From Macrostomum hystrix (taxonomy: Eukaryota > Animalia > Platyhelminthes), in contig CATNEN010000001.1 in assembly GCA_950097015.1 (NCBI GenBank), positions 3,844,001-3,908,000 on the forward strand: a stretch of DNA of 64,000 nt. Direction: 5' to 3'. Positions 8,943 to 52,500 of the stretch are shown here, in pieces. The notes beneath the pieces are model-generated. The model ran no database searches, was not told the origin of the DNA, and saw only the letters and a program-made list of their open reading frames with translations. The translations under genes were made by a program, and so were the position numbers. The first letter of the stretch is position 1. Every line of letters starts with the position of its first letter.

Positions 8943-9304
8943 ATATACTGTTACTGTAGTGAAACTATCGAGCGGTAGCATACATTTTTGAGGGGGAAGC
9001 ATAAATTTACGAGGGGGGAAAGTATATATTACAAGGATGTAGCATCAACTATCGAGTGGAAGCATAAATTGAGGGGGTATAGCATAAAATATTGAGGGGG
9101 TAGCAGGCTTCGTCGAAAGATAACATGATTAACATGATTTTACAAGGGATAGCATGATTAATTAAAGGTTTAGCATACCTTGAGTAAACATACAAGCTTT
9201 GTTGAGAGGGTAGCATATGCTTTTTCAAAGGAGCGCACGATATATCGATGTAGATTATTGATGGAAAGCATTAACTAATAAGGGGAAGCATGGATTATCG
9301 AATG

Positions 9305-9897
9305 TGTTGTGGGTCAAATTTAAATCCGCGCTAGAAAAATATACTGTACGTATACTGGTAATATTAGCCTTATTCGATTTGTTTAAAATGTAAAAATATA
9401 CTGAGCATATATCCAGCGTACGTGGAAAAATTACTATAAATACAGCCCAGTTTCAATTAGATAGCTAACCGTTTCGTGACCATTATTAAGAAACAGTTCA
9501 ATTCTCCTCGTGAGCAATCTTAACAAAGCCTTACTTATTTCTAAAGTAAGTGGAAGCCGTTGAAACCGATCCGGGGAAGCCCGAGTACAGACTGGCCAAA
9601 GAGCCTGAGTTATCTGACATATCTGTCTGAATCACCTGAGAGCATTGCCTCCAGAACTAACTAGATTTAATATCTAGAACATTACTGGCAGAAGGCCAGA
9701 AATATCGTGACAAAGAGCCACGCTACCCAAACTATCAGTAGTTTGTATAAGTCCACCCGAGCAGGGGTGTGGTATAATGTATATGTCACTCTAAAATGAT
9801 TGACAGGCAATAAGTCAGAAGTTTAGGCCAATTACTTACAGTATGAGGAGAGTTTGAATTACTAGAAAAGTGCAATTGTAGAAGAAGCACTACAACA
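9305..9897 (+). repeat. 5' LTR
   Basis: TGTTGT...ACAACA; TATAAA near 9436; matches 14791-15383 apart from one C/T difference I could spot (9349 vs 14835). Confidence 0.97.
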
Positions 9898-9900
9898 ACT

Positions 9901-9912
9901 TGGTGGCAGCGG
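9901..9912 (+). promoter_or_regulatory. Primer binding site, tRNA-Leu
   Basis: TGGTGGCAGCGG 3 nt after the LTR, complementary to the tRNA-Leu 3' end CCGCUGCCACCA. Confidence 0.85.
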
Positions 9913-9976
9913 AAAAGGATCGGAAAAGCGGCGGAATCTTACTTAGAAATAAGCTATTCATAGTCAAATAGTCAAA

Positions 9977-11092
9977 ATGAATGCCAACGATGCAATCGCC
10001 ATGCTAGCAGAAGAACTAAGAAACCGATTAGAGCTGGGACCGACGAGACATGTCAAAATTCAAAAATTCACGCCAAATCAGGAAATCAGAATTTGGCTGA
10101 CAGCCTTTGACCAGCGCTGCGAAGCTGAAGGAATAGAGGAGGCACACAGGAAGCGCGAGCTCCTAGCCAACCTCGATCTCTCAACTGCGTTTGCCGCAGT
10201 GCAGCGTATGAACTTACCGGACGATCTAGATTACGAAGAATTTAAAGAAAGACTAGTGGAACGTTTCGGAAGAACAGGAAGCTCCGCCGAATTTAGGGAA
10301 GAATTTAGAAGCCGTAGTCAAGGACGCAACGAACCAGTGGAAAATTTCTCTGACGCTCTTATCGAACTAGCTACCAGAGCATTTCCGAATATGACCGCAG
10401 AACAGAGAGAAGAAGAAATAATAGAACAATTTATTAAAGGAGTGAAAGTACCGGCTGAAACCAGAGAGAAGCTTATTTTTGCTGCACCAGCAACTCTACA
10501 AGATGCAAGGAGAATGCTGAGACGCATGGAAACAGCGTGGAACATGTCCCACAAAGGTGTTAGTATGAAGATGGCCAAGAGTGATGAAGCTGAACAAAAG
10601 AGACAGAGCAGGATTGAAGAAATATTGCTGAGGCAACAAGAAGAACTAGAACAACAAAAGAGAACCATGCAAGAACTCATGGTCAGTGTTCAGATGGCTA
10701 CTCAGAACCTGCAGCAGCAGCAGAACTATCCGCAGCAGCAGAACTATCAGCAGCAGCAGAACTATCAGCAGCAGAATTATCAGCAGCGGCAGAACTATCT
10801 GCAGCAGCAGCAGAATTATCAGCAGCGGCAGAACTATCAGCAGCAGCAGAACTATCAGCCGAAACAGCAGCAGAACCATCAGCAGCAGCAGAACTATCAG
10901 CGGCAGAACTATCAGCAGAGACAGCAGTCAAATACTCAAGCGCAACAGCAGCAGTTGCAGAACTATCAGCAGCAGCAACAGCAGCAGGATCGCCCGCCGC
11001 GGATCTGCTTCAATTGTGGCAATAACGGGCATGTGGCCAAATTCTGCCGAAGTTCTGGACCGGCTAATTCCAATCAGCAGCAGGGAAACTGA
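9977..11092 (+). CDS. gag: Gag (capsid-like region, QQNY-rich tract, CCHC zinc knuckle)
   Basis: EFRSRSQGRNEPVENFSDALIELA (retrotransposon gag MHR-like), QFIKG, CFNCGNNGHVAKFC. Confidence 0.93.
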   Translation: MNANDAIAMLAEELRNRLELGPTRHVKIQKFTPNQEIRIWLTAFDQRCEAEGIEEAHRKRELLANLDLSTAFAAVQRMNLPDDLDYEEFKERLVERFGRTGSSAEFREEFRSRSQGRNEPVENFSDALIELATRAFPNMTAEQREEEIIEQFIKGVKVPAETREKLIFAAPATLQDARRMLRRMETAWNMSHKGVSMKMAKSDEAEQKRQSRIEEILLRQQEELEQQKRTMQELMVSVQMATQNLQQQQNYPQQQNYQQQQNYQQQNYQQRQNYLQQQQNYQQRQNYQQQQNYQPKQQQNHQQQQNYQRQNYQQRQQSNTQAQQQQLQNYQQQQQQQDRPPRICFNCGNNGHVAKFCRSSGPANSNQQQGN

Positions 11093-11156
11093 GGAGCGAG
11101 GATCGAGCAGAGAGGCCCCGATCCTCCAGAGTAACTACTAGCGAATTATTGGCCTC
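11083..11156 (+). promoter_or_regulatory. -1 programmed ribosomal frameshift signal (G GGA AAC plus predicted H-type pseudoknot)
   Basis: Slippery heptamer just before the gag stop; -1 frame is open from 11089 into ORF2; stem 1 GAGGATCG(11098-11105)/CGATCCTC(11119-11126); loop GAGGCC pairs with GGCCTC(11151-11156). Confidence 0.85.
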
Positions 11157-13428
11157 AACTAACGTACAAAGTATTATCAATTCAGCTTTGAGGTGTGAGA
11201 GATTACTCAGAGATACTAGCAGCGAAGAAGAAATCGAAGAAGAAAAAATTGTGTCAATTGAAGAAACTGAATCGGAATCTGAAGAAGCGGAAGCTAAAGA
11301 TGCTGAACTTAATATGAATGAAGTTGAACAGGAATTAATGGAAACCGAATCTGATGAAGTTGAAGCAGCAATAACTGAGTCTAATAAAGAAGGATCAAAA
11401 TCCGAATCATTAGGAGTCGAGTCTGAATCTGATGAGGAAATTTCCGAAGAAGAGACGGAAGAAGAGAGTGAAGAATTGGATGTGTCATCTGATCATTCTG
11501 TGTCTCGAGCAAGTCCTGAAGACTGGCGTCCCGTTGTTGAAGATGAAGATGAAGAATTTTACGATGTTGAAGAATCTAGCGGTAAAAATAGCCTTGTTGA
11601 GAGTGGCTATGCTGATACCGAAATTTTTGAGGACGCAGTTGAGGATATTTTCGAAGATGCCTATGATGGTGACAGTGAGGATGAAGGATTGTATGAGGAT
11701 GCGAGAGACTACTTCAACGATGAAGAGGAGGAAGTAGCTTGTCGGAAATTACTCACGGAATTTCTTCCCATGCCTGTAACTAAGGAACAGTTAATTGCAG
11801 CTCAGGAAGATGATGTTGTTATTAACCTTCTGACTCAGTGGAAGCGAGATGGAGTGAAGCAGTTGCCAGAGAACACCTCCAAAGAAATAAAAAGATATGA
11901 GAAATATTACGACCAGATGCGAATTGAAGAAAATGTACTAGTTATATATGATGGTGAAAGTTGGAAGATAGTACTTCCAGAAGAAATGGACGCAGCTGTT
12001 CTGAAAGATCTGCATGACAGTCCGCTGACTGGTCACCTGGGCCGGGACAGAACTCTGCAGAGAGTGACAAGGCGATTCTGGAGACCCGGATTAAACAGTG
12101 CTGTAGAAAGATATGTATCTGAGTGCATTCCGTGTCTAGAAAGTAAGACCGGAAATAAAATTCAAGCACCTGTTCAAACATTTCCTATCTGTGAGCCTTT
12201 CCACAGGCTGCACATTGATGTGATTGGTCCTATCTCCAAGGAAAGTAAGCGGGGACATCAGTATGTGCTCACCGTGGTTGACAGCACTACGAAATACCCA
12301 TTTGCTTTTCCTATGCGAAATCAGAAGTCCAACACTGTCATCAAATTACTCCAGGAAAGAATTTTCTGTGAGTACGGGCAGTGTGGTTGGATCCATACTG
12401 ATAACGGAAGAACCTTCACTAGCCATCAGTTTCAAGCTTTCTGCGCATTGTACAATATTAAACATACGTTTACAACTCCATATCATGCGCAGAGTAATGG
12501 CCTAGTGGAGAGATTCAATAGACAATTGAAATCTATAATCACCTGTCTGATTGACAAAGACCATGCAGACTGGGATTTGCTGATTCCTGCAGCGCTGGTA
12601 GCAGTGCGTACCAGTATAAATCAGACCACCGGGTTCACACCCCATTACTTAATGTTTGGGAGAGAAGCCGATTTGCCGATTGATCTGATTGCGAAGCAGC
12701 CAAAATCTTATAAAGATTATCCTAGCTATGTAATGGAGCATGCAGAGAGACTAACTCAGGCCAATAAGATAGTGCAGCAACAGTTGAATAAAGTCAAGGA
12801 GAGTAGAAAGAAATCTGAGAAGGAACGGAAGCCGCCTAAAGAAATTGCTGTGGGGAGCTTAGTGCTGATTAATAACCCACAAATTCAGCCAGGCGAGAGT
12901 CATAAGTTCCACAGAAAGAAGAGAGCTGCTTATCGCGTATTGAGTCAGATATCCGACACTGTTTTTCGAATTCAGAAGGAAACCGATGGAGTGCTAGAAG
13001 GACCGAAAATGATAGCGCATAGGAATAATGTCACTGCTGTTCCGAATTCAATGAGAATTGTTGAAGAAATTGTGAAGAAAAATGGCGCTCCTAAAGCAAA
13101 GGCCAAGCCCGCAGAGCAAGGTATTAAGAGGAGGCAGCCAGAACACAAAAAGCCGCCAGACAAATTGCCGGACGTGTCAGATAGTGAGTTAAGCTCTGAA
13201 GAAAGAATTAGATGGTCTGCCCGTGGCAGGGAAAGTTTTGACCCGCACGAGGAAAATGAATCGCCAGAGAGCGATACCAGTGAAAGCTCGGAGGAAAATG
13301 AAGAAATCCCCGAGGACTTAACAGATCGAGTTGCCTATAATCTCAGGCCACGCCTGACCCCACGCATCACGCAGACATGCGGTGATCTCGTGCCAAAGCT
13401 TAAGCGTGCTCGCTTTCAAAAACAATAG
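11089..13428 (+). CDS. Pol-frame ORF: ~200-aa D/E/S-rich linker plus DD35E integrase, expressed as a Gag fusion
   Basis: HDSPLTGHLG...CIPC zinc finger; HIDVIGP, HTDNG, NGLVERFN with 35 aa between D and E; degenerate GPY/F region; no D[ST]G protease, YxDD RT or RNase H motifs. Confidence 0.92.
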   Translation: MRSEDRAERPRSSRVTTSELLASTNVQSIINSALRCERLLRDTSSEEEIEEEKIVSIEETESESEEAEAKDAELNMNEVEQELMETESDEVEAAITESNKEGSKSESLGVESESDEEISEEETEEESEELDVSSDHSVSRASPEDWRPVVEDEDEEFYDVEESSGKNSLVESGYADTEIFEDAVEDIFEDAYDGDSEDEGLYEDARDYFNDEEEEVACRKLLTEFLPMPVTKEQLIAAQEDDVVINLLTQWKRDGVKQLPENTSKEIKRYEKYYDQMRIEENVLVIYDGESWKIVLPEEMDAAVLKDLHDSPLTGHLGRDRTLQRVTRRFWRPGLNSAVERYVSECIPCLESKTGNKIQAPVQTFPICEPFHRLHIDVIGPISKESKRGHQYVLTVVDSTTKYPFAFPMRNQKSNTVIKLLQERIFCEYGQCGWIHTDNGRTFTSHQFQAFCALYNIKHTFTTPYHAQSNGLVERFNRQLKSIITCLIDKDHADWDLLIPAALVAVRTSINQTTGFTPHYLMFGREADLPIDLIAKQPKSYKDYPSYVMEHAERLTQANKIVQQQLNKVKESRKKSEKERKPPKEIAVGSLVLINNPQIQPGESHKFHRKKRAAYRVLSQISDTVFRIQKETDGVLEGPKMIAHRNNVTAVPNSMRIVEEIVKKNGAPKAKAKPAEQGIKRRQPEHKKPPDKLPDVSDSELSSEERIRWSARGRESFDPHEENESPESDTSESSEENEEIPEDLTDRVAYNLRPRLTPRITQTCGDLVPKLKRARFQKQ

Positions 13429-13781
13429 GCGAACGCCCACCACCCCAGGCCAGTAAGCCAATGGGTGATGATATTGCTCACATATTCTCCGTGTATTATT
13501 GTGTAATCTGGCGATACCTATATCGCTAATATATCCTGCGTGTATCAAATTTGTATTGTTGTGTAATTCCTACGATAAGACTGCGTCACGAAAATATTTT
13601 AAATACTCTCCGCATATTATTTGGTATATCTTGTATACACATCGATATCCTCATTGCAAACAAAATCTCGGCATCCTATTGGTCAGGCACTTGCCCATTT
13701 TGTGACTATATAAAGGGCCACCTCGGAACAAGGGTTGCGCTAGCTAAGTGCTCTACTGAGACATACAGCCAACTCGCCATA

Positions 13782-14660
13782 ATGGCCGAAAATACCTCAC
13801 TGAGTGATTTCTTACAAGAACTCATTGACTGTAATGAAGTTCCAAATGAATTCACAGGAGTGAGTGTGGAAGTCCTGCCAGCAGGCAGCGAAACTGAGCC
13901 GCCAATAGGCGAGTGCAATGTGGTTGACACCACGCCACGCAACGAATTGGCCGCTCCGCTGCGGCAGGCCACGCGGCCGAAACCACCTGCCTATAGGGGC
14001 ACGGCTGTCAAGCGGATGAGAACCTCAAGCCCGCGGCTGGAACCAGAGAATCGGCCACGAGGATCGCCGCAAAGCCGAGTCTCTAGACTGCCAATATCTA
14101 CAGCCGAGATTCGTAGGCCTACAGTGCTATTGCAGCAGCCACCTGCGCATAGACCATCACAACCGACAAAGGTGGTGCAACAACCAAAGCCGCAATCAAC
14201 AGTGTACAGACCACCGTCACGCCAGCCGCTGGCTCCACGGCCTCAGAAGTTATCCACACCGGAGGATAATTGGCCACCGCGGTCTGCAGCAGCACATGGC
14301 CGGGCCGATCGGCCGGCTGCGTCAAGGATTCCACCACCCAGAATCGGGACCCGCGAAGAGCGCGTGGCCAAAGCGCAGCACAAGTTGACGCAATATCTGC
14401 TAAAAATTGTGTTCCTGCGCCATGACCAAGCACTGCCGCAGAGGGCGCACATATGGCCTTCAATTCGCTCCCTACGCAGTGCGACGGACACGGCCGGGGC
14501 CATTACGGCCATGGAGACGGTCGCCGACAGGATACGGCGAGCTCTAAATGCAGGCGACAGGCAGGCCTTCCGGACCCTACTGAACATCGAGGTACGCTGG
14601 ATCCTCATCCAGCTAGGCTGGATCCACTACGAGGAACCACCGCCGCAGTTTGAGTTCTAG
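13782..14660 (+). CDS. ORF3, 292-aa orphan protein (acidic N-terminus, P/R/Q-rich middle, helical C-terminus)
   Basis: Good-context ATG (GCCATAATGG) about 70 nt after TATATAAA at 13707; uninterrupted and GC-rich; lies between integrase and PPT. Confidence 0.7.
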   Translation: MAENTSLSDFLQELIDCNEVPNEFTGVSVEVLPAGSETEPPIGECNVVDTTPRNELAAPLRQATRPKPPAYRGTAVKRMRTSSPRLEPENRPRGSPQSRVSRLPISTAEIRRPTVLLQQPPAHRPSQPTKVVQQPKPQSTVYRPPSRQPLAPRPQKLSTPEDNWPPRSAAAHGRADRPAASRIPPPRIGTREERVAKAQHKLTQYLLKIVFLRHDQALPQRAHIWPSIRSLRSATDTAGAITAMETVADRIRRALNAGDRQAFRTLLNIEVRWILIQLGWIHYEEPPPQFEF

Positions 14661-14777
14661 AGGGATTGACTAAGTGTTTAATCAATTTTTATGGACATTT
14701 ATTTTTCTGCAAAGTGTTAATCCTTAGCTAACATCTTTTGCTAATAATACTTCACTTAATTATTCAGTATTATTATT

Positions 14778-14789
14778 AAGAGGAGGCAG
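14778..14789 (+). promoter_or_regulatory. Polypurine tract
   Basis: AAGAGGAGGCAG immediately before the 3' LTR. Confidence 0.8.
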
Positions 14790-14790
14790 T

Positions 14791-15383
14791 TGTTGTGGGT
14801 CAAATTTAAATCCGCGCTAGAAAAATATACTGTATGTATACTGGTAATATTAGCCTTATTCGATTTGTTTAAAATGTAAAAATATACTGAGCATATATCC
14901 AGCGTACGTGGAAAAATTACTATAAATACAGCCCAGTTTCAATTAGATAGCTAACCGTTTCGTGACCATTATTAAGAAACAGTTCAATTCTCCTCGTGAG
15001 CAATCTTAACAAAGCCTTACTTATTTCTAAAGTAAGTGGAAGCCGTTGAAACCGATCCGGGGAAGCCCGAGTACAGACTGGCCAAAGAGCCTGAGTTATC
15101 TGACATATCTGTCTGAATCACCTGAGAGCATTGCCTCCAGAACTAACTAGATTTAATATCTAGAACATTACTGGCAGAAGGCCAGAAATATCGTGACAAA
15201 GAGCCACGCTACCCAAACTATCAGTAGTTTGTATAAGTCCACCCGAGCAGGGGTGTGGTATAATGTATATGTCACTCTAAAATGATTGACAGGCAATAAG
15301 TCAGAAGTTTAGGCCAATTACTTACAGTATGAGGAGAGTTTGAATTACTAGAAAAGTGCAATTGTAGAAGAAGCACTACAACA
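14791..15383 (+). repeat. 3' LTR
   Basis: Direct repeat of 9305-9897, followed by TSD AATG. Confidence 0.97.
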
Positions 15384-15498
15384 AATGGAAAGCGTGAAAT
15401 ATCGAGAGGGAGATTAAGTTATATAATAGTTATATATTATAGTAAGGTAACTCGCTTTATAAGCAACAGGAAAAGAAATGAAATTGCCAACATAAGTT

Positions 15499-15548
15499 TA
15501 AAGTGCCGAAGCTTTTCGTCCTAAGCGGACATCGTCAGGGTCGATTTA
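15499..15548 (-). ncRNA. Minimal hammerhead ribozyme in the 3' pLTR
   Basis: Reverse complement of 17331-17380: CUGACGA-U-GUCC gcuua GGAC-GAAA-AGCU-UC. Confidence 0.75.
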
Positions 15549-15760
15549 TTGAAAACGAAAACACTGGTATTTAAAAGTAGGTTGTTGCACATTGTGAGTT
15601 AAAGTCCGATGGACAGGGTCGATTTATTGAGAAACGAAAACGTAGGTGTTTAAAAGGTTATTGTACATTGTGAGATAAAGTCCGATGGGCAGGTCAAAAG
15701 GCGAACCAGAGGTTGGAGAGGAGCGCACACACAACTCAGAGAGAGAGCGTGCCTCATACG

Positions 15761-17106
15761 TCAGAACACTTGGAGCTGTTGGCTTGCACCGTTCCCCGCT
15801 AATTGGACATTAAGGTTTGGCTTGAGGGCCTTGATGTACATGGCTTCAAGAATGGTCAGTTTGTAATCTTGCCTACACGTGTCAACAACTTTGAACAGTT
15901 CAAGTGGCTCCTTATTACAACAACTATCGCAACCTAGCAAATGGTCCCGGATAGCAGAGTTTTTTACCCAATGCTCCTTAGCCCTCGTGTACAAATGTCG
16001 TTTAGTCTTTCCCACGTAAGTGGTGCTCTGATCCACAGAACAATTGAATTGGTACACGACACCTGCAACAAGTGGCCTTGGAACACGGGATTTCAATCTG
16101 CTAACAAAACGGGAAATCTTGTCGGTGCGAAAGATGACCTTGATATCAGAGTCAAACCATTTACGGAAAATCTTTTCAAGTTGTTTCTTGAACATCATCG
16201 AAGGGATTCCAATAAATGGCAGGATAATCATGGGAGTGTTCAGGTCCTTATCTCTATCCCTGTCCCTCTGCATGCGACGATTAGTGAATTTGTTGTTCAT
16301 GAACTTGTTGATGTGGTAATAAATGTAGTTTTTGGGATAGCCATTGGCACCAAAGATCCTAAGCAGTTCAAGGGTTTCAAGATGGAACATTTCCCAGGAG
16401 CTACAAATCGTAAAGGCTCTCTGAAGCATGCAACTAATGAGACCTGATTTCCATTGCCTTGGGCACAGAGCGTCGAACCGTAACATGAGCCCAGTGAACG
16501 TAGATTTCCGGAACACACCCGTGGAGAAAACGCCCTTCTCAGCATCAACGTTAATGTCGATGTCAAGAAAAGGGAGGCGTCTGCCACCGCCTTCCACAGT
16601 GAACTTTATGTTCTCGTGGGTTGAGTTGATGGCTTTTAGAAAGTCCTCCCTCTTGGCCTCATCGTCAAAGATGGTGAAGGTGTCATCCACGTAGCGTTTG
16701 TAGAAGTGAGGGGCACATGGCAGCTTTAGCCACTCCTTCTCCCAATGGGTCATGCAAATGTTGGCAAGGGTGGGGGCCAGTGGGCTACCCATAGCACAAC
16801 CATCAACCTGCCGGTAATATTTGTCCTGGAACAAGAACACCCCAGAGGTAGCGTATCCAAGCATTTTCTTGAACGTCACTTTGGAGAAAGGTGGGGGATT
16901 GTTCTGAAACACCAGATCAGCGGCCAAATCAATAGCCAACTTCAATGGGATGTTGGTGAACAGCGACACCACATCGAAGCTGAACAGCTTGTCATTGGGA
17001 TTGACGGTGTACTGATTCAAGGATTTGAGGAAGGCCCCGTTAGAGTTGACACTGGCACCCTGCTCAATAAGGGGTTTGATCAAAGCATCAAGGTACTTCG
17101 CAAGTT
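15761..17106 (-). CDS. Penelope RT + GIY-YIG endonuclease (N-terminally truncated, no internal stops)
   Basis: ORF track 15761..17194; its first ~29 codons come from the inverted pLTR. Confidence 0.85.
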
Positions 17107-17330
17107 CAAGTGTTCTGACGTATGAGGCACGCTCTCTCTCTGAGTTGTGTGTGCGCTCCTCTCCAACCTCTGGTTCGCCTTTTGACCTGCCCATCGGACT
17201 TTATCTCACAATGTACAATAACCTTTTAAACACCTACGTTTTCGTTTCTCAATAAATCGACCCTGTCCATCGGACTTTAACTCACAATGTGCAACAACCT
17301 ACTTTTAAATACCAGTGTTTTCGTTTTCAA

Positions 17331-17380
17331 TAAATCGACCCTGACGATGTCCGCTTAGGACGAAAAGCTTCGGCACTTTA
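17331..17380 (+). ncRNA. Minimal hammerhead ribozyme in the inverted pLTR
   Basis: CTGACGA, 4-bp stem II GTCC/GGAC, GAAA, palindromic AAGCTT stem III, UC cleavage site, weak stem I. Confidence 0.75.
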
Positions 17381-18214
17381 AACTTATGTTGGCAATTTCA
17401 TTTCTTATATATTATAATATTATATAATAGGGTATATAGTATATAACAGAACAAATAGTATGTGCAAGATCACTGAAATCCCTGCATGGAAGTGTAATGA
17501 AAAACTCACATTATCTTTTTTTGAAAATGGAATTACCCCAATGAAAAGGTTTGTAGCATTTTTTCAACTCTAAAAATTGAATTGGAAAAAAGCAACATTT
17601 AAATCCAGTGCAATACATAAGAAATAAATATAGCCTTATGTGGTTCTGCACAATGACTATTTCCAATCACCGCGGTACTCGACCTGCCAGCGCCTAAAGA
17701 GTATGTTATTAGTAGTGAAATCGGATAGCGCGCCGATCGACAATAAAAAAATAACAAAGAAATTTAATTCACAAAAAATTTTTTTGTGGGTACATAATTT
17801 ATTGTCACTCAATTTAATTGATTAGCGTTGATAGAATCGGCGTTCACTAGTTAACGATGATAGTTATATAGTTATAGTATAAAGGTATGAGCGATATTAA
17901 AATATCTCAGAGCCAACACCAAACACATACCAAATGTTATGCAAATGTAATTATTAGTTCCTTTTTTCACGACACAGCTGTGACTTTCATTTTATTATTA
18001 TTTATTTATTTATTTCTCATTTATTTATTTTTTAGAGCTTATTTAAAATGGTAGAAATGTTAAAACTTTTAAACGACTGAATAATAGCTGTTCACAGAAT
18101 ATAAGAAAAACTACAAGAAACAGGTTAGATACAGTTTTTGAAATTCAATTTAACGTAAAAACACTTTTTAGTGCGCAGATTCCGCAGTGTTGCTCAGCGA
18201 ATTCCGTAAAACGA

Positions 18215-25570: not shown

Positions 25571-28354
25571 ATGTTGCGCCTTGGTAAGCTAAGAAGTTTT
25601 CTTTATTTTTAGTGTGACGAAATTAACGGCAGACAGAGTCAGGCGGAAGTTCAATATTCCAATTAGAGTCCAGAGTTCGCGTAATCTAGTGTAGCGGTAG
25701 CACTTTATCTTTATTTATTATTACTGGGACACGACAAGCAATATAATTAAAGTCAGGTGCAGGAGCTCAATGATCACGATGCAATAGAGAAGACAGCAGA
25801 TTACAGTAGTGACAAAGAGCAGTGACAAAAGGGGTGGGCCGGTTGCGGCACGGGCGGGCCCAGGGGGCCTAGTTAAATAAGCTAGCCCGCGGTAAAAACA
25901 GGGCGATCGATAATCTAGAGAACCAGAGCACGCACGCTCATTGGCTGAGAGAATTGACATTAATGCAACTGCGAGATAAGTTTAGGGATAGCGCGATGTG
26001 CGTTGGCGTTTACTTACAGTAACAATCTAAGAAATATACGGAATTGCAAAGTTGGTGACAGCGTAATTACATTTGATAAACGGCCCAATTCAGTACCACA
26101 TAAATTTAAGCTTCATAGGGGCTCTTGGAGTAAGTGACAACGTCGCATTAGCTCCTTTATTTAATTGCTTTTCGTTCTTTATCCTCTTCGTTTAATTTTT
26201 AGTGCTGCTTGTGCTGACTGCTGCGCTGGCTCAAGCCTCAGTGTCCATCACCAGCTCCAGCTTGGACGGGCCGCATCCGTCCACCATGGAACTCGAAGTT
26301 CAACTGCCGAAAACCAACAAGAAAGTCCGCATTCCGCTGACTAAGACCGAGGCGTTCGAGAATGTGCCAATGACAGTTGCCGAAAATGGCATCGAGAGGA
26401 CGTTTTCGGCGCGCCAACTTCATCACGCCAACCACGCTCACTACAGGGACATCGACACCAAGTCAGTGATCAGCGTCCGAGATCTGAACGGTCAGAAGCG
26501 CATCAGCGGTCACGTGATGCACGAAGGAGTCTCGTACTTCCTGGAGCCTACGGGCAAATCTGAGCATCGAGTCAAAAAGAACATGGCCAAGCCGGATGGC
26601 ATTGAATCGCAGATTGACAAGAAAATATTGCGAGCTGTGAGCCGCAAGAAGCGACAGTCAAATCAAGGAACCACGGAGTACGAGGTTGAGATAAGGCTGC
26701 TTGCTGATCACACTGTGTGGAACACTTTCAAGACAATCTATGGCTCCGATGACACAGCCATGACGGAGATTCTCTACTATTACACGCACATTTTGAACGG
26801 CATGGACACGGCCTTCAGAAACATCGGTTCGCCGTCGATGAGTGTCAAGTGCATCGGCTTCACCGTGGCCAAGAACCAGACAGACGCACCCTGGATGCCT
26901 CCAGCTGGTTCTGCTGACAGTGAGTGTTGGATACTTAAAATCAAGCTTGCAGTCTTTACATTCAGTATAAAGGAAAAAAGTTTCTCATTGTCAATTGGTG
27001 AGTGAGAGCACGATTAGATTCGACTTTCTTTTCCGCATTTCAGCCAACAATGCCGGCGCTATCCTGCACTACATCCAGATCTATTCGATGGACAAGGGAG
27101 CCGATCACGAGATGGCATTCACGCACACCGACATCCAGAGTCCCGGCAGGTTCGCCATCGGCGGCATGACCTACATTGGCGGCGCATGCAAGGAGTCGCG
27201 CCAGAGCATCATAAAGGACCTGGGCCTCCACAGCTGGATCGTCGCTTCGCACGAGCTGGCCCACAATTTGGGCTCCGCTCATGACAACGACGAAGATCAG
27301 TGCAAGATTGCTTCGAAGTATCTCATGGCACGCTCGGCTGGCTATTATAATCTCAGCGATGTAATGAACTCCTATCGGTTCTCACCCTGCACCGTGAGGT
27401 ACATCCAGAACTTCATTAACACTGGTAATAAACTATTAATCTACATGTCAATTTATACCTACCTTCGTATTGCACGGTCTAAGATAAAAATATTTGCAGG
27501 ATGGTTGTGGGCACTGCAGACAAATTATTTGGTGACAAAAGACCCGCAGCCAGCAAAAAAATACTGCCTGATTCCTCTGACCACTGAAACCCAGCGATAT
27601 CATCACAGAGATACTGAACATATACCCAGACTTTTCATCGTCCAGTAGTGTACTCTTTCACTAACCCTTGATGGTTTGCCCCCGCCCAAGGGCGTCGTAA
27701 ATTACACGACAAGCCCCCAAGCCTTCTCTCCGCGGCTGCGCTCCAAATAAATGTGGCTTCGCCCCGGATTTAAGCTCAGGGACCTTGGAGAGAGAGTCAA
27801 ACTTGTGAACAGCTCTGCCACTCATTCCTGAAAGTAGTTAAGACAAGCGTTGTATATTGAACTTTCCAGGAAATGCCAACTGTCTGAGGAGCCGTCAGAG
27901 CGTATCGGACACCTCCATGACTGCGGTGGTTCGAGAGGGCAGTCGCATGACTCTCGACCAGGTGTGCCGACTGACTTATCCGAGCAGCCCTGGCAAGTTT
28001 TTCCTCACTACCAATATCTTTAAGAATCCGGCAGAAATCTGCGCCAAGATCTACTGCATACCGAAAGCTGGATCCTCCTACGGTATCACGACAGGTGGTC
28101 TTCGCGCTCCGATCGGCTCGCCTTGCGGCAACAAGAAGAGCTGCAACTGGAACGGAGAGTGCGCGGCCGACGATGCGGCCCCGGCCGCCGACGAGGCCTG
28201 CTTCTGGGGCGACCTCTGGGGAGATTACTGCCCCGGCTGGTGGGTCTACATCAAGAACCTGCGTGACAGCAACGAGATAGCCGTATCCAAGAGCTACTGT
28301 GCTCGATCGCTAAGCGGCTGCTGCAGAACTCTCAAAGCTCTGTGCACGTTTTGA
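25571..28354 (+). CDS. Secreted reprolysin/ADAM(TS)-like M12B metalloprotease, copy 1; exons 25571-25583, 26203-26919, 27044-27424, 27870-28354
   Basis: MLRLVLLVLTAALAQA signal, pro-domain, RKKR furin site, HELAHNLGSAHD zinc motif, YLMA Met-turn, FSPCT, Cys-rich domain; all introns phase 1 with GT-AG. Confidence 0.9.
25613..26147. mobile_element. Solo LTR in intron 1 of protease copy 1
   Basis: TGTGACG...CGTCGCA termini, TSD TTAG; the empty site is visible in paralog copy 2 (46461-46464). Confidence 0.85.
27650..27826 (-). mobile_element. SINE family A fragment in a protease intron (shorter paralogous copy at 47828-47922)
   Basis: Reverse-complement similarity to 5941-6110. Confidence 0.7.
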
Positions 28355-31215: not shown

Positions 31216-32402
31216 GGAATATCATTTGGTGACACTAGACTCTCAGGCTCAGCCATCGAGGAGGCAATTCTGCCCATTTCGCTGACTCCTGAGCACATAC
31301 GCATACAGATATACTCAGCAACATTAAAAACCGCCACCCTAGAGCGAGGCGAACGGTTGATCTCAACTCACTGCCGCAAATTACGTAATGTGCACCTGAC
31401 TGCAAGGAGAGCTACCGTGGGAGAGTGGGGTGGGTAAAGGGTTATCGCGAAGTTCAAAATGGATGATTTAGCACACTCAGTCAAAATGCAGCTAACGAGT
31501 CACCAGTATTACTCGTTATCTCCAAAATGGTCCGCCACATGACCGATGGTGAACGATGGCGAGCCATAGGCATGCTTGAGGCCGGAATGTCCATCCGAGC
31601 AGTAGCCCGTCCATTCGGCAGATCACGCTCGACGATTCGCAGCCTTCTGCAGAAGTCCAGAGACACTGGCAGTGTCGCGCACGCAAGTCGTGGAGTCCAG
31701 CGTGGTCATCTGCGCAGCACAGCAATGGCTGATCGGCGACTGCTGCGAATTGTGAGTGGAAACCCCACCTTACCTGCCACATTGCTTCGACTCATCTGGG
31801 GTGAAAGAAGCAGGCGCGGGAACATCTTGAGCGCCCAAACAATTCGACGGAGAATTTGGGCGGCTGGGCTGCGCTGCCGGAAGATGCGCAAGCGCCCCCG
31901 ACTGACGCCACACGAGAGCTGTGGGCGATGCAGCGAATTCACTGGAGGCAGCAGTTATTTAATAACACACCCGAATTTCCATGCTACTGTCAGGTAGTTT
32001 GACTCTCTTTCGTTTCTCTGGTTACGGAGTCGGGGTGGGTGAGCAGAGTGCATTGCGTCATTCGCGGTTTTTCACCTCTCTCTCAGGTGCACATTGCGTC
32101 ATTTGTGGTAGTGAGTTGAGATGAATCGTTTTACTCGCTCTAGGGTGGCGGCATTTAATGTTGCTGAATGTACTGTACGAAGGTACACGCTCACACAGAC
32201 ATAGGTGCTTAGTTCTGCCCTGAATATTTTGTCATGAGTCAGTGTACATTTTCGCGGTGCCTTGGAGGTTGGCCCTCAAGGGCGTAAATTGCTCGACAAG
32301 CCCCAAAGCCTTCTCTCCGCGGCTGCGCCCCAAATGAATGTGGCCTCGCCGTAGAATCGAGCTCAAGGGACCTTGGTGCGAGAGGTCAATGCGTTAACCG
32401 CT
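31216..32402 (-). mobile_element. SINE family A, near full length, split by a Tc1 insertion
   Basis: 31216-31311 and 32171-32402 join into a colinear match to 5941-6218 and 48508-48703. Confidence 0.75.
31312..32170 (+). mobile_element. Internally deleted Tc1/mariner transposon
   Basis: Diverged TIRs (~90 bp alignable), TA TSD; ORF 31527-31997 encodes only the paired-like HTH (ERWRAIGMLEAGMSIRAVAR..GRSRSTI) with no DDE domain. Confidence 0.85.
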
Positions 32403-40827: not shown

Positions 40828-43299
40828 CGCCCCTGGAAAGGATGGCATCCTCCCAGCATTTCTGCAGAAACTACAAGACGAATGCCGGCGGGCGCTTTTG
40901 ACTCTGTTGAACAGGAGCTGGCGAGAGGGGAGAGTCCCCTCAGCGTGGCGCACGGCCATCATTTGTCCAATCGCTAAGAAAGACAAGCCGACCCACGACC
41001 CAGCCTCCTACCGCCCAGTCTCTCTGCTGAGCTGTGTAGGCAAGACCCTCGAGGCCATGGTCAACAATCGCATGAATGCCTGGGCCGAAGAGAACGGCCT
41101 GATCCCGATGAGCAGTCAGGCTTCCGAGCGGGTCGTAGCACCCTCGACGCCGTGGCCCAGCTGGCTCAACCAGCATTCGACTCTCTTCAGACACGGCCAA
41201 TGACAAGGACCTTGCTTGCCGCGTTCGACTTTCAAGCGGCGTTCGATCGCACTTGGCGCCTAGGGGTCCTGCGTGAGCTCGCTCGGGCCAGAGCACCGGC
41301 CAGCTGGATGCGGTGGCTTCGATCGTTTCTGGCTGACCGGCGCGCCTGCGTCCGCTGGGGAATTCAGTCGGCTCCGAGTCCTAAAAGAAGGCGTACCGCA
41401 AGGCAGTCCGCTCTCGCCTCTGCTCTTCAACATCGCCACTCGGACCCTGCCCGGGGCCATTCAGCAGGCGGCACCCAAGTGTAGGCCCATCCAATACGCG
41501 GACGACCTCACTGTGAAGATATCAGACGCCTCCCCGGTGACGGCTACAGTGCAGATGCAGGCCGCGATCGACGCGGTGAGCGGCTGGTGCGAGGAACACC
41601 ACTTCAAGCTGGCGTCGGCGAAGACTGAAGCCATCCTTATCAGTACCCACCCGGCTGAGCTCAACGGCAAGTTCGGCGGCACTCTGCAAGCCGGCGGACA
41701 CACCGTCTCCTGCATGCGCGAGATCAAGGTCCTGGGAGTAACGATCGACTCGCAGCTCAATTTCGCTGAACAAGCAAAGAAGTCTCTCGCGGCGCTGCAC
41801 AGGAGGCTCGCGGCTCTCCGCTGCGTTGCCGCGAGATCCTGGGGTGCGAGCTTTGAGACTCTACACCGCCTCTACTGCAGTTACGTTCGTCCGGCAGGGC
41901 TATACGGGGCTGAACTTTGGTGGCCGTTCCTGGCCCCCACCCACCGCAAACGTCTCGAATCCGCCAACTATGCCGCTGCTAGGATCATCACAGGGGTCGG
42001 CGCCGGAGCCCGGGCCCGCGCCCTAATCTGCGACGCCGGCCTCCAGCCGTTCAACACCATCTGCCGGCAGAGGGCCGCGGAGCTGCTCCTGCGCTGCCAG
42101 CAGTTCCCTGAAGGGCATCTACTCCGCGATCTGGCCAGCCCGTCCGCCACCCGCACCAGACTCAAGGCGAGGACCGCGGGCACCCGAAGCTCTTGGCGCG
42201 AGTCGGCCATCGAGATACTGAGCACTGTGGAAGGAGGCCGCGACCGGGTGGAAGGCCGTATTCCCCCCACCTGCTTTCGTCGCCCCTGGTCCCGCAGTCT
42301 CCCGACCTGCTTCGTCCGTGTCGAAACCAGCCGCGACGAGGCACCACTTGTTCGGAGGACAAGAACCCTGGAGCTGCTAGACCGCCTGAGGCAGGAAGAC
42401 CCACCAGACCTGCAGATCTGGACCGACGGCGCAGCAGAGGAAGGCATCCGTAATGGAGGAGGCGGCTACCTGATTCGGCAGCGGGCCCCAGGGAGCCGGG
42501 ACATCAGAGGCAGTGTCCCAGCGGGGCACCTAACCTGCTCAACGACCGCGGAGGCCGCTGCGGCCGCAGCTGGTCTTGAGGCGGCCCTGGCCAATCTCCA
42601 CGGACGCCCCAGCATGTCCGTCTGGCTGCTGTTCGACTCCCAAGCGCTCTTCGACCGGCTCCAGTCACAGCGTAAATGCCAGACAGACCACGCAACTGCA
42701 CAGGCGTCCATTCTGCTGGAGCAGCTTGCCACGGACCACCGGCCTACTGTAATCTGGGTACCGGGCCACGCCGGGCTGGCGCTCAATGAGGAAGCCGACA
42801 TTCTGGCTCGCGGGGGCTGCTCGCTCCCGCAAGAGAACATGCCAACACCGGTCGCGGCGCTCAGAGCTGCTCTCAAGCGGCAAGGTCAAGCGGAAGATGA
42901 CCGAGCCTACAAAGACCTAGTCCCTCTGGACCACCCACACCGACTCAGCGGCGGCAAACGGCTGCAGGTCGGCCGTGCCTGGCCTCGTGCGGCGGAGGTG
43001 GCGCTGTTCCAACTCAGGGCGAACCGCGCGCCTTTCCTACAAGCCACTCTACACCGCTGGGGCAAGGTACCCGCTGCGTCTTGCCCTCACTGCAACGCTC
43101 CCGAGGAGGACACGCGGCACTTCCTGCTTGAATGCCCCAGGTGGGTCGATCAACGCCGCAACCTCCTCCATTCTGCTGGCTCAATGTCCCTCCTGTGGGA
43201 GGACCCGAATCGGGTGCGGATCTTCGTCGAGGCGACGGGCGCGCTGGCGCACCCCTCATATGCCTAGCGAGGGATCCGTACGCCAACAACAACAACAAC
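40828..43299 (+). mobile_element. 5'-truncated LINE with RT, RNase H and CCHC finger (I-group-like), two frameshifts, (CAA)n tail
   Basis: APGKDGI, YRPVSLLS, FDFQAAFD, GVPQGSPLSP, QYADD, IWTDGA, DSQA, WVPGHAG..NEEAD, CPHC..EDTRHFLLEC. Confidence 0.93.
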
Positions 43300-46422: not shown

Positions 46423-48346
46423 ATGTTGCGCCTTGGTAAGCTAAGAAGTTTTCTTTATTTTTAGCTCCTTTATTTAATTGCTTTTCGTTCTTTATCCTCT
46501 TCGTTGAATTTTTAGTGCTGCTTGTGCTGACTGCTGCGCTGGCTCAAGCCTCAGTGTCCATCACCAGCTCCAGCTTGGACGGGCCGCATCCGTCCACCAT
46601 GGAACTCGAAGTTCAACTGCCGAAAACCAACAAGAAAGTCCGCATTCCGCTGACTAAGACCGAGGCGTTCGAGAATGTGCCAATGACAGTTGCCGAAAAT
46701 GGCATCGAGAGGACGTTTTCGGCGCGCCAACTTCATCACGCCAACCACGCTCACTACAGGGACATCGACACCAAGTCAGTGATCAGCGTCCGAGATCTGA
46801 ACGGTCAGAAGCGCATCAGCGGTCACGTGATGCACGAAGGAGTCTCGTACTTCCTGGAGCCTACGGGCAAATCTGAGCATCGAGTCAAAAAGAACATGGC
46901 CAAGCCGGATGGCATTGAATCGCAGATTGACAAGAAAATATTGCGAGCTGTGAGCCGCAAGAAGCGACAGTCAAATCAAGGAACCACGGAGTACGAGGTT
47001 GAGATAAGGCTGCTTGCTGATCACACTGTGTGGAACACTTTCAAGACAATCTATGGCTCCGATGACACAGCCATGACGGAGATTCTCTACTATTACACGC
47101 ACATTTTGAACGGCATGGACACGGCCTTCAGAAACATCGGCTCGCCATCGATAAGTGTCAAGTGCATCGGCTTCACCGTGGCCAAGAACCAGACAGACGC
47201 ACCCTGGATGCCTCCAGCTGGTTCTGCTGACAGTGAGTGTTGGATACTTAAACTCAAGCTTGCAGTCTTTACATTCAGTATAAAGGAAAAAAGTTTCTCA
47301 TTGTCAATTGGTGAGTGAGAGCACGCTTAGATTCGACTTTTTTTCCGCATTTCAGCCAACAATGCCGGCGCTATCCTGGGCTACATAAGGACCTATTCGA
47401 AGGACAAGGGAGCCGATCACGTGATGGCATTCACGCGCACCGACATCCAGAGTCATGGCAGGTTCGACATCAGCGGCATGACCTACTTAAGCGGCGCTTG
47501 CAAGGAGACGCGCCAGAGCATCATCGAGGACCAGGGCCTCCACAGCTGGGGCATAGCTTCGCACGAGCTGGCCCACAATTTGGGCTCCCATCATGACAAC
47601 AACGAAGATCAGTGCAAGATGGGTTTGAAGTATCTCGTGACACCGTGGGCTAACCGTTATAATCTCAGAGATGTAATGAACTCCTATCGGTTCTCACCCT
47701 GCACCGTGAGGTACATCCAGAACTTCATCAACACTGGTAATAAAATATTAATATACTTGTCAATTTCATACCTACCTTCGTATTGCACGGTCTAAGATAA
47801 AATATTTGCAGGATGGTTGTGGGCACTCCGTGGCTGCGCCCCAAATAAAGATGGCTTCGCCCCGGATTTAAGCTCAGGAACCTTGGAGAGAGAGTCAAAC
47901 TTGTCAACAGCTCTGCCACTCATTCCAAAAAGTAGTTAAGGCAGTGTTCTATATGGAACTTTCCAGGAAATGCCAACTGTCTGAGGAGCCGTCAGAGCGT
48001 ATCGGACACCTCCATGACTGCGGTGGTTCGAGAGGGCAGTCGCATGACTCTCGACCAGGTGTGCCGACTGGCTTTTTCGAGCAGCCCTGGCAAGTTTTTC
48101 CTCACTGACAATGCCTATAAAAATCCGGCAGAAATCTGCGCCGAGATCTTCTGCATACCGAAAGCTGGATCCTCCTACGGTATCACGTCAGGTGGTCTTC
48201 GCGCTCCGATCGGCTCGCCTTGCGGCAACAAGAAGAGCTGCAACTGGAACGGAGAGTGCGCGGCCGACGATGCGGCCCCGGCCGTCGACGAGGCCTGCTT
48301 CTGGGGCGACTCTAGGGGCAATAGCAATGCCTGCACCTCGCAATAA
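46423..48346 (+). CDS. Reprolysin M12B metalloprotease, copy 2 (C-terminally shortened); exons 46423-46435, 46516-47232, 47356-47736, 47967-48346
   Basis: Same exon structure as copy 1; HELAHNLGSHHD; Met-turn reads YLVT; ends FWGDSRGNSNACTSQ*. Confidence 0.87.
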
Positions 48347-50253: not shown

Positions 50254-50900
50254 TCAGCTGACCAGATCTTTAAGAGTGCCAGGCGGGAACTGATCACCGT
50301 TTTCCTTGCAGACTTTAAAAACGAAGAATTGGAGCAGGTGATTTATATCACTCTTTGACAGATCTTCAATAGGTTTGATCACCATAAGCCCCGTTTGATT
50401 GTGAGTTAGTTGATTTTGCGGACGTCTCTCTTTCCAGGTAGAAACCGGTAGACTTTCATCAATTCTTTTTTGCAGGTCCGATTCGTTCAGCAACTCAGCA
50501 ACTCTCAGCGAAGGCTGCAAGGAATTTCAGCGGAATTCAAAGGACCAAGGGACGCCCATAAGGCATCAAAGTTGAAGTCCTGCAGTGTCAGGATGGAATG
50601 GGCGTGACTTCTTCTTACGACCAAAGATGGCCGGTGCTGCGGACAGCGTTTTGTAATACAAGACTCCTCTGGGTGTCAACACGCTTGGACCAATGTTGAA
50701 GACTATCTCAACCAACGCCGGATTGTCAAAGGTTTACACGCCTCACAGTATTCGTGCAACTGTGGTGACGGAGCTTCACGAAGGTGGCTTCAACCTAGAG
50801 AGTATCGCAAAAGTCACCGGCCACAAAAATGTCGCGTCAGTGCAGCGCTACATCCGCCGCGGTAGAAAGCGAGACTCCGAAATCACAAAGATGAGTGGCC
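50254..50900. pseudogene. Crypton-type tyrosine recombinase remnant with an internal inversion
   Basis: Plus strand YTPHSIRAT...IAKVTGHKNVASVQRY (HxxR/H/Y); minus strand INHLLQFFVFKVCKENGDQFPPGTL (upstream DUF3504-like block). Confidence 0.75.
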
Positions 50901-51059
50901 ACTTGACAACAGCTCTGAGCCCTGGTATCGAAGGGCAATCCGAGGTCGCAACGGCGTTAGGTAGCTCTAGTGTATCGGTGTCGGATTCTGCACAAGCCAA
51001 CTGTGTCACGTCGGAGTATGTTTGCCGCGGGTCCAAGAGTTTGAAGATTCGGGCACATG

Positions 51060-52500
51060 GCGACCAGCCATCGATTTGCTATTGGTGCCAACATCTGCTC
51101 GGCCAAGCGTCAGACAATCATAACAAAACTGCTCGAACATTGCTCGCAATAATGTTGAAGCCATTGTTCGGCGGTAAGCCATTTGTTCTAAGGCTGATAC
51201 CGATTTTTCTTCTTTCCGCCGACTTTTTTTACCACCAGCTTCGAAAGTGCATTCAAATTATCAATCAACATGGAGGCTACAGCGCTTCAGGTTTGATGCC
51301 TCACCCCACTTTTAGTGTGTTATTACAGAGGCCTCGTGTGTGACAACCATCCCACAAAGAGAAAGTGCTTCTCGATGTTTCCTGCTCAACAGACAAAACC
51401 TTGGATCGGCAGATCTGAATCCCAGGATTCTACTTTCTTTTTGCTCCATGATGTTGTGCACCTTTTGAAGTCAATTCGGAACAATTGGCAGTCTGAGTCT
51501 GATGGAATGCTAACAATACGTTTGCCCGAATCTACAACAGTCGTCACGGCTAGGTGGTCAGACATTGTAGAGCTGTATAAATCTGAAGCGTATCACATTG
51601 TTAAGCGTACAGGCATTACATTCGAAGTGTGTTTCCCAACAAATGTCCAAAGTACTAAAGTCAATTTAGCTCTTCAAGTTTTCTTCGACAACGTTGTTGT
51701 CGCTAAAATGCGACGGGAACAATGTAACCGCTGCATCCATTGACGTTATTTCAAAATTCTGGAAAATTATGAACTGCAAGAACCCGCGCATCTTCATGTT
51801 AGACTTAATGACCCAGACAGGCGGGCTGTCTATTCAGTTCAAGATTCAAACATCAAGTTCCTGCGCGCGCATTGCGAATCGATTGAGGAGATAAACAGTG
51901 GAAAGGGAAGAACAAGACACCAATCTCTGACGTCAGAGACGAAGAGGTCATTCGCTTAAACTATTCATTAAATCATAGAACTATGCGAACGACTGCTCTG
52001 CGAATCTGGTGCAGCGTAAATTCTCATAGCGGAGTTGCAAAGTGATCCTCTGGAAGCAGAATTTGGTGTTTATCGCCAAATGAGCGGATGCAATTACTTT
52101 ATTTCAGTAGAGCAAGTTCTTCTCAGCGCGCGACTCCGACGAATGAAACTTTACACAGTGTTAGAGCTGGGTGGATTCGTGCACAACAAAGGACTTTGCT
52201 GCGACACGCCCCTTTCAGACGAAGAACTTTCAACGCTCGATGACTGCTACGTCAAAGCTGAGAGCCTGTTCAATTTTGCTTGCCTCTGTTTCGGATGCTT
52301 CCTTTCGCTGCGATCACCGTCATGTGCTTTGCGAGTGCGGATATTGTTTGCTGGCGTTGGCGAGTTTTACTTACCTGAAGCAGATGTTCTGGTGTGCGGC
52401 GTGCGCCTCACCAACTGTTTCTTCAAGGGTTATGTTCAACGAGGAACAAAGAGCGCTCCTTCGCCTGATAAAGAGCGCGATAGAAATATACTGAAGCTGA
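51060..52500 (+). pseudogene. P-element/THAP9-like transposase remnant
   Basis: VCDNHP, HDVVHLLKSIRNNW, ARWSDI.ELY, KVNLALQVF, QSDPLE.EFGVYRQMSG.NY; several frameshifts and stops. Confidence 0.8.

Follow-up and report, generated by a model that had tools for sequence, protein, structure and literature searches.

An intact Ty3/Gypsy LTR element of Macrostomum hystrix without protease, reverse transcriptase and RNase H

Non-autonomous forms are common among LTR elements, and the described ones that we found keep gag alone or decayed pieces. In the available parts of the respective reports, the plant elements RLG_Quinta, RLG_Sabrina_SA and TR-GAG keep gag and cis signals intact, have neither reverse transcriptase (RT) nor integrase and require a helper, the Quinta lineages show a diverged coding part between well-aligned flanks that is attributed to recombination, and partial decay is reported for sugar-beet families that retain pieces of integrase, RT or RNase H (RH) (PMC11302176, PMC9744471, PMC13570524). 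Mouse IAP 1-delta-1, according to the portions of the papers at hand, is a deletion form in which an in-frame internal deletion yields a Gag-Pol fusion that helps its own RNA in cis, the element being mobile with help in trans (PMC6466679, PMC7411935); integrase complementation in trans is known for Ty1 (PMC7459421, in part). The accessible sections on the bdelloid LTR elements Vesta, Juno and TelKA report a family-specific, non-envelope ORF3 after pol, which the non-autonomous TelKA2n, without the gag end and most of pol, still retains (PMC5408684). An intact family with gag and integrase and without RT is not described in the open-access texts covered by literal phrase matching.

The window analyzed here, a stretch of 64,000 nucleotides from M. 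hystrix, contains an intact Ty3/Gypsy LTR element without protease (PR), RT and RH. It shares an intact gag, intact cis signals and the missing RT with the plant elements but, unlike them, has an intact integrase, a frameshift and an ORF3. Its features are as follows.

9301..9304 (+), left target-site duplication, AATG
9305..9897 (+), 5' LTR, 593 bp, TG...CA; TATAAA at 9435
9901..9912 (+), primer-binding site TGGTGGCAGCGG, which we take to be that of tRNA-Leu
9977..11092 (+), gag, 371 aa
11068..13428 (+), ORF2, 786 codons stop to stop, without a start of its own
11083..11126 (+), putative -1 frameshift signal: GGGAAAC, 8-nt spacer, hairpin 11098-11126
11127..13025 (+), middle unlike the commoner family form, 1899 nt; joins at 11126 and 13026
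11157..11289 (+), interval of the putative deletion junction, about residues 31-74 of ORF2; without similarity to protease, RT or RNase H
11290..11739 (+), acidic tract, ORF2 aa 75-224, exceeding that of the M. lignano relative P0050 by about 57 aa
11740..13032 (+), integrase: H316 H323 C353 C356, D384 D445 E481 (D,D35E), GFTP motif, C-terminal domain
13429..13781 (+), intergenic stretch; TATATAA at 13707, CCAAT boxes at 13458 and 13678
13782..14660 (+), ORF3, 292 aa
14778..14789 (+), polypurine tract
14791..15383 (+), 3' LTR, 593 bp, TG...CA
15384..15387 (+), right target-site duplication, AATG

The two LTRs differ by a single mismatch (C at 9349, T at 14835; divergence 0.17%), and the insertion is likely to be recent. 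GGGAAAC at 11083-11089 is in register at the gag end, with ORF2 in the -1 frame, and the hairpin that follows (-14.3 kcal/mol) is matched by 31 of 500 shuffles, a weak signal on its own; we infer that ORF2 is expressed by -1 frameshifting. Three frames are open, those of gag, ORF2 and ORF3. The first-pass annotation had described a young copy with 593-bp LTRs one mismatch apart, an AATG duplication, a primer site, a purine tract, a frameshift site and three open frames, and all of these were recovered here with the same values or located by coordinates, the copy being at least young-looking. No tRNA gene was found within the window, and a heat-shock-element pattern is absent from the LTR.

The TG...CA LTRs, primer site, purine tract and short target duplication are those of the Ty3/Gypsy lineage, and Gypsy-type Gag and integrase are both present. 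Ginger DNA transposons have terminal inverted repeats instead of LTRs and no gag, and are excluded by the direct 593-bp LTRs and the gag gene. Gag comprises a capsid-like N-terminal half, a Q/N/Y-rich repeat (about 10709-10990) and a CCHC knuckle (11003-11050; Pfam zf-CCHC E 7.5e-4, just under the cut-off), and resembles the Gag part of the Gag-Pol protein P0063 (phmmer E 8e-11 among 140 proteins). It has no sequence match in PDB, and a single-sequence structure model was unusable (pLDDT 44). Neither gag nor ORF2 or ORF3 has an exact match in the protein collection searched. Q-rich and acidic repeats lie close to the junction interval.

In ORF2, a spacer is followed by a linker, the integrase and an acidic/basic tail. 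Integrase_H2C2 and rve are its only Pfam matches above the cut-off, the scan having covered 6 ORFs out of 35 listed. Motifs of RT, protease or RNase H were not detected in six frames, tblastn matches of two autonomous Pols are confined to the linker and integrase, and a search with 86 segments each of RT and RNase H gave no match at E<=1e-4 on the + strand. The reported absence of these domains is upheld, as is the claim that the element is non-autonomous and must borrow all three activities; the order PR-RT-RH-IN that defines an autonomous Ty3/Gypsy pol is not found here. A Gmr1-like order (PR-IN-RT-RH) was rejected, there being no RT or RNase H 3' of the integrase in the window and the RT-RH of the nearest relatives preceding the integrase. 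The putative deletion is clean, with no stump of protease or RNase H: a profile of 31 protease starts scored behind the frameshift no better than 206 of 1000 shuffles, and candidate remnants of RNase H or other pol parts in ORF2 aa 8-75 were equalled by 286 to 1129 of 2000 shuffles.

Given that the genome is repeat-rich and that repeats occur near the junction, one could suppose that PR-RT-RH was dropped by assembly collapse. However, among the short-read contig sets of separate runs (X1, X2, X3 and X5), X1 record 4 (11097-12507) and X2 record 14 (11097-11445) run across the junction and show no difference from the window there. It is present in the DNA itself, and a collapse, which the first-pass annotation had named as a possible refutation, appears highly improbable, even though one of the two runs may derive from the window's own sample.

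P0050 (PAA49551.1), which represents a cluster of 10, is an autonomous Ty3/Gypsy Pol of Macrostomum lignano, compared as protein only, that carries protease, RT and RNase H, and resembles the window ORF2 in its integrase (69% across 431 columns and 82% within the core), in an acidic linker with an identical motif before the integrase and in a similar tail. The linker start (ORF2 aa 75-124) aligns to P0050 727-776 and the linker end (aa 182-220) to P0050 773-809, in both cases with 0 of 2000 shuffles as good. The P0050 linker, with 27 D/E in 50 residues, is the only very acidic one of normal length among the 48 of 101 proteins that were measurable (10 cluster mates dropped). These alignments identify the acidic tract as the native RNase H-integrase linker, and they overturn the earlier proposal that the missing domains were replaced by new low-complexity sequence. 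A unique copy whose relatives carry PR-RT-RH plus the same acidic tract had been named as the mark of a simple deletion; the part of this expectation that concerns relatives holds for P0050. Descent of the linker from the acidic tail by copying (1580 of 2000 shuffles as good) and a recent tandem duplication (matches of only 11-26 nt) were rejected as alternative origins. Because both ends of the tract align with the native linker, about 2.2 kb would have been removed between two spacers with the frame preserved.

The window integrase is sister to that of P0050 (support 99/97) and shows no decay at the protein level, in agreement with the earlier description of an intact element with open frames: 14 of 156 conserved sites are changed, vs 10 of 152 in the autonomous P0050. 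A single integrase protein query gave no match in metagenome and viral contigs, and an alignment query gave 59 distant loci there at 18-44%, none close. In the 38 of these 59 loci that were usable, with at least 1.3 kb upstream and several of them redundant, RT or RNase H precedes the integrase in 35, and among the loci without RT are one short insertion and one decayed piece.

The copy is a mosaic. Single contigs depart from the window at 11126 and rejoin it at 13026, in X1 and X3, so that the 1.9-kb middle differs from that of a commoner family form, about 10 times deeper, which has the same gag end, tail and ORF3 and another, related middle. The first 30 letters of the departing contigs match the window in register at 18/30 and 19/30 (by-eye count; P between about 1e-3 and 1e-4). 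X1 contig depth, a rough hint and no measure of copy number, is 82.6 for the flank, 77.9 for the middle, 735 for gag and 762-815 for the ORF3 region; the comparison rests on X1, the left flank having no contig cover in X2, X3 and X5. X3 records 19 and 20 cover 834 and 1096 nt of the other middle, respectively, and if they are adjacent, with the 30-nt overlap seen between neighboring contigs in the same table, it measures 834+1096-30 = 1900 nt vs 1899 in the window. The window middle has 632 open codons, the other two frames carrying 40 and 76 stops. Parts of the window integrase are also present in another element, a second X1 contig matching 12478-12959 with 3 differences. A search for the Pol of the commoner form through the common tail returned P0001 as the sole match among 374 candidates, and a search among longer proteins gave 81 matches, none above 35%.

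Two scenarios follow from the commoner form: (i) if it is autonomous, the window copy is a rare helper-dependent derivative, or (ii) if it is also without RT, the window copy belongs to a stable satellite family with Gag, integrase and ORF3. A rare, recently mobilized in-frame deletion derivative, copied by a putative complete relative, appears to be the most plausible explanation, one that we hold with moderate confidence. About 2.2 kb of pol would have disappeared from between the linker start and the spacer that follows the frameshift; template switching at two places, near 11126 and near 13026, would have combined the middle with the LTRs, gag, integrase tail and ORF3 found in the commoner form. 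The LTR would drive a genomic RNA that yields Gag and, via the -1 frameshift, a Gag-linker-integrase fusion; both would co-assemble with the helper's Gag-Pol, the helper protease would release the integrase by cutting at the conserved stretch preceding it, the helper RT would copy the RNA using the primer site and purine tract, and the element's own or the helper's integrase would insert the DNA, giving the 4-bp duplication, with ORF3, as an accessory protein of the family, possibly expressed from a promoter of its own. The derivative would share with IAP 1-delta-1 the in-frame deletion, the fusion and the need for help; the latter, in the parts of the reports available, differs in being retroviral, with a deletion that begins inside gag, a high copy number and experimentally proven mobility.

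The homology of the linker to that of the complete P0050, the sister position of the two integrases, the junction spanned in two runs, the flank-level X1 depth of the middle, the contigs that depart and rejoin at the two joins, the precedents of IAP 1-delta-1 and of Ty1 integrase complementation, the 35 of 38 loci in which integrase travels with RT and the chance of 1/3 that a single junction falls in frame all count for the deletion derivative, and the intact frames are compatible with it given that LTRs 0.17% apart leave little time for decay. Counting against it are that no autonomous helper with the same LTRs was observed, the missing stump, the length of the other middle (too short for PR-RT-RH if the X3 contigs are adjacent), the three events required (one deletion and two switches) and, weakly, the unbroken X1 contig at the junction, which an undeleted parent should split, contigs showing presence rather than absence. 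Alternatively, a complete copy of a minority subfamily could have inserted here and been stripped of PR-RT-RH later, with no movement of the short form. This would also fit the depth of the middle, and near-identical LTRs date the insertion and not the deletion. It appears unlikely: both an insertion and a clean in-frame deletion must have happened while a single LTR mismatch arose, and it calls for a complete parent that has this linker and integrase, of which X1 gives no sign, a weak argument.

Under the second scenario, the whole multi-copy family would be without PR-RT-RH, with Gag, integrase and ORF3 kept under selection, RT and protease borrowed from, for example, the P0050 family, and two linker-integrase middles, diverged to roughly 60% at the edges, swapped by template switching. 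The near-equal lengths of the two middles, the in-register likeness of both edges, the long open frame, the undecayed integrase, the missing stump together with the unsplit X1 contig, and the second contig with 3 differences are all in line with this scenario, which we consider the less probable of the two but a serious alternative. The 1900-nt sum presumes adjacent X3 contigs and is out of frame by one, the flank-level depth implies no spread of the window version in X1, and the acidic tract is an inheritance rather than an innovation. A possible parallel is P0003 (PAA79347.1) of M. lignano, with at least 283 residues without RNase H before the zinc finger, longer than in 46 of the 48 measurable Pols; its integrase branch, like that of the window, is about twice that of its autonomous sister (0.41/0.19 and 0.16/0.072, respectively). 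However, P0003 is a partial gene model, known as protein only, and its N-terminal part aligns with neither the window linker nor the P0002 linker.

It is conceivable, if doubtful, that such elements form a long-lived Ty3/Gypsy satellite class that has kept capsid, frameshift, working integrase and accessory gene, outsourced protease and reverse transcription, exchanged linker-integrase cassettes by template switching and arisen more than once (the window family, perhaps P0003). RT-seeded surveys could not detect these elements, and the published M. lignano survey, seeded on RT according to the available part of its text (PMC12801592), would overlook such a family; the gene ids of the relatives are absent from its supplements. 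A whole family without RT would mean that RT-seeded annotation has a gap in a genus that includes a transgenic model animal, whereas a single such copy would be an ordinary though tidy product of deletion and recombination. The intact integrase behind the frameshift raises the question why an integrase that could be borrowed is kept; candidate gains are target choice, recognition of the element's own LTR ends and a cis advantage as in the IAP fusion.

ORF3 was previously considered an orphan; in fact, it has 3 homologues in M. lignano. It consists of a conserved N-terminal motif, a Pro/Arg-rich middle and a conserved C-terminal domain (14337-14657) predicted to form four helices, and represents a separate small family, different from the bdelloid ORF3s, which the accessible text lists as env, GDSL, DEDDy, coiled-coil or membrane proteins (PMC5408684). 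An envelope-like ORF3 was rejected given the lack of a membrane segment (highest 19-residue hydropathy 0.94, N-terminus -0.28, 2 Cys), and, with neither signal peptide nor membrane anchor in ORF3, the element is not errantivirus-like. No Pfam or NCBIfam family and no Atlas match was obtained for ORF3, nor any Foldseek match of the domain at E<=0.001 in PDB or the viral library, empty results that show neither absence nor novelty; the best VIA Z of 7.5 (CUL3 chain, rmsd 3.5, 101 aligned) is tied with unrelated helical proteins. The stretch 13429..13781 may be an internal promoter of ORF3, its boxes being consensus matches only. With its conserved four-helix domain and possible promoter of its own, the ORF3 family is a small separate lead.

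The Ty3/Gypsy element at 9305-15383 is real, intact and helper-dependent. Its placement and signals were confirmed as given in the first-pass annotation and are listed here with its three reading frames, all of which are open and uninterrupted.

9305-9897 and 14791-15383: LTRs, 593 bp, TG...CA, one mismatch
either side of the element: target-site flanks, AATG
9901 (start): primer site
9977-11092: gag, 371 aa
11083: putative slip site, GGGAAAC, with a hairpin 3' of it; ORF2 is in the -1 frame
11068-13428: ORF2, 786 codons
13782-14660: ORF3, 292 aa
14778 (start): purine tract

Taken alone, the frameshift hairpin is weak, being matched by 31 of 500 shuffles. Gag is akin to the Gag portion of polyproteins of the Gypsy type (E 8e-11 in a set of 140 proteins) and its C-terminal end is a CCHC knuckle (Pfam); its Q/N/Y repeat (10709-10990) is long, prion-like in composition and differs in length between copies, with many contig joints located there. 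In ORF2, Pfam recognizes no domain other than the zinc finger and core of the integrase, in which HHCC and D,D35E are both complete. The reported lack of protease, reverse transcriptase (RT) and RNase H was upheld by Pfam and by three further searches of the element: no motifs of these domains were detected in the six frames, none of the three was found by tblastn with two autonomous Pols, and a panel of 86 RT and 86 RNase H segments revealed neither RT nor RNase H.

The top three protein matches, at 62, 45 and 44%, are from Macrostomum lignano, and the remaining 41 of the 44 matches are at 25-42%; together with the M. lignano homologs of ORF3, this fits a Macrostomum flatworm as the host. In a tree of 22 rows, the integrase is the sister of P0050 (PAA49551.1), an autonomous M. 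lignano Pol with the order protease, RT, RNase H, integrase (support 99/97); the two fall in a Macrostomum clade of four members (100/100). The P0050 linker between RNase H and integrase comprises 91 residues. ORF2 residues 75-124 match the start of this linker (P0050 residues 727-776, beginning six residues past the RNase H end) without gaps, and residues 182-220 align to its end, each match beating 2000 of 2000 same-composition shuffles. Given that both ends align, the acidic tract ahead of the integrase is the native linker, approximately 57 residues longer than that of P0050, which thus carries both the same tract and the three domains. Compared with P0050, residues 1-726 (about 2.2 kb) are lost, and the deletion junction lies between about 11157 and about 11289, where some 45 codons match no pol domain. 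The deletion left a clean, in-frame join, and no sequence took the place of the lost domains. The earlier proposal that new low-complexity sequence replaced them in frame is accordingly abandoned and, once the tract is read as inherited, the main argument against a random deletion falls away.

The junction exists as DNA. Among contigs of four of the eight listed short-read runs, all from one study and one possibly from the sample behind the window, a single contig of run X1 spans 11097-12507 and contigs of run X2 span 11097-11445 and 11668-13055, all with zero differences, which largely refutes the suspicion of a collapsed assembly. The depth of X1 contigs is 82.6 in the left flank and 77.9 in the linker and integrase, versus 735 in gag and 762-815 in the ORF3 region; contig depth is not copy number, and this roughly tenfold ratio is a hint. 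Individual contigs of X1 and X3 depart from the window at 11126 and return at 13026, and one X5 contig also departs at 11126; the 30 letters at each join match the window in register at 18 and 19 positions (by eye; P 1e-3 to 1e-4). There is therefore a commoner form that has the gag end, integrase tail and ORF3 in common with the window copy at 98-99% and carries a related, strongly diverged middle. Another X1 contig matches 12478-12959 with three differences, so parts of the window integrase are present in another element. The window copy is a mosaic. Template switching between co-packaged RNAs yields patchworks of this type, and a comparable pattern is described for RLG_Quinta (PMC11302176). 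In X2, the gag contigs fall into two versions, one with 10 differences over 478 nt (depth 33) and the other with 39 (depth 28), versus a depth of 10 for the ORF3 contig; the family may include further subfamilies or gag-only forms.

On balance, we lean towards the element being a rare product of deletion and recombination. The alternative, that the commoner family is itself a stable RT-less lineage, as in the satellite or bipartite element originally proposed, is less likely but has a substantial probability. Two X3 contigs extend 834 and 1096 nt into the commoner form's middle; less a 30-nt overlap, as seen between neighboring contigs, these sum to 1900 nt, versus 1899 in the window (11127-13025). 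If the two adjoin, as this sum presumes, the commoner form also has no room for the three domains, and we estimate that the coincidence shifts the weight towards an RT-less family by a factor of two or three; however, 1900 nt is out of frame by one. The X1 contig is unsplit at the junction, where a parent that shared this linker and integrase but lacked the deletion would be expected to split it, which argues weakly for a stable family, but the window's middle shows no spread in X1, and chance gives an in-frame junction one third of the time. The integrase is altered at 14 of 156 conserved sites, versus 10 of 152 in that of P0050, a further hint of a stable family, although so young a copy has had little time for decay. 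The M. lignano protein P0003 (PAA79347.1), a partial gene model whose N-terminal part aligns with none of the linkers tested, carries no RNase H over a stretch of at least 283 residues ahead of the zinc finger, which exceeds 46 of 48 measurable Pols and hints at RT-less forms; against this, RT or RNase H lies upstream of the integrase in 35 of the 38 distant loci with enough upstream DNA, a subset of 59 partly redundant loci. Counted to the integrase start, P0003 has at least 185 non-RNase-H residues and is a possible second RT-less form. At locus L002 (2864-3814), RT is located 3' of the integrase, which is the Gmr1-like order.

Whether as a deletion product or otherwise, the element would require a helper: Gag and the -1 frameshifted Gag-linker-integrase fusion would co-assemble with the helper's Gag-Pol, protease and RT would be supplied in trans, a conserved stretch ahead of the integrase could serve as a putative cleavage site, and integration would produce the 4-bp duplication. 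As precedents, the IAP 1-delta-1 fusion is reported to aid its own RNA in cis and to depend on trans-supplied Gag and Pol (PMC6466679, PMC7411935), and Ty1 integrase can be complemented in trans (PMC7459421). TR-GAG, Quinta and Sabrina, as described, resemble the window element in their semi-autonomous working but lack integrase, which places it outside these groups (PMC11302176, PMC9744471, PMC13570524). Literal-phrase matching in the open-access literature found no intact Gag-integrase family without RT; a survey of M. lignano was seeded from RT and, in its accessible text, mentions no non-autonomous forms (PMC12801592).

ORF3 is common to the commoner form and not peculiar to the deleted copy. 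It had been called an orphan, a label that no longer holds: three homologs, two of them from M. lignano, were found among 1.84 billion representatives, plus one further cluster member. The homologs have in common an N-terminal motif, which supports the ATG at 13782 as the start, and a second, short motif further inside; their C-terminal domain, invariant at 23 columns across 5 sequences, is modeled as four helices (pLDDT 86). A consensus match to a TATA box lies 75 nt 5' of ORF3. Our best guess, held with low confidence, is that ORF3 is transcribed from an internal promoter and encodes a family accessory protein, an adaptor whose basic arm is disordered. An envelope function was ruled out because sequence-based prediction found neither a signal peptide nor a membrane segment in ORF3.

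Several other features accompany the element in the window. A Penelope-like element that appears very young (15473-17406) begins 90 bp past the 3' LTR; its RT and GIY-YIG ORF (15761-17200, minus strand) is flanked by arms, at least 300 nt long, that complement each other perfectly. Two gene copies (26148-28220 and 46461-48320), 94-96% alike and with frame breaks or introns, presumably encode a secreted metalloprotease (HELAH zinc motif); a Pfam search with one exon gave no match. A Tc1/mariner-type transposase fragment (31310-32172) is flanked by 108-nt inverted repeats, an ORF of a non-LTR retrotransposon (41264-43267), encoding RT and RNase H, is broken upstream, a tyrosine-recombinase fragment (50657-51343; Phage_integrase, E 5e-11) is perhaps Crypton-like, and 61352-62008 is an exon of the host gene Rtf2.
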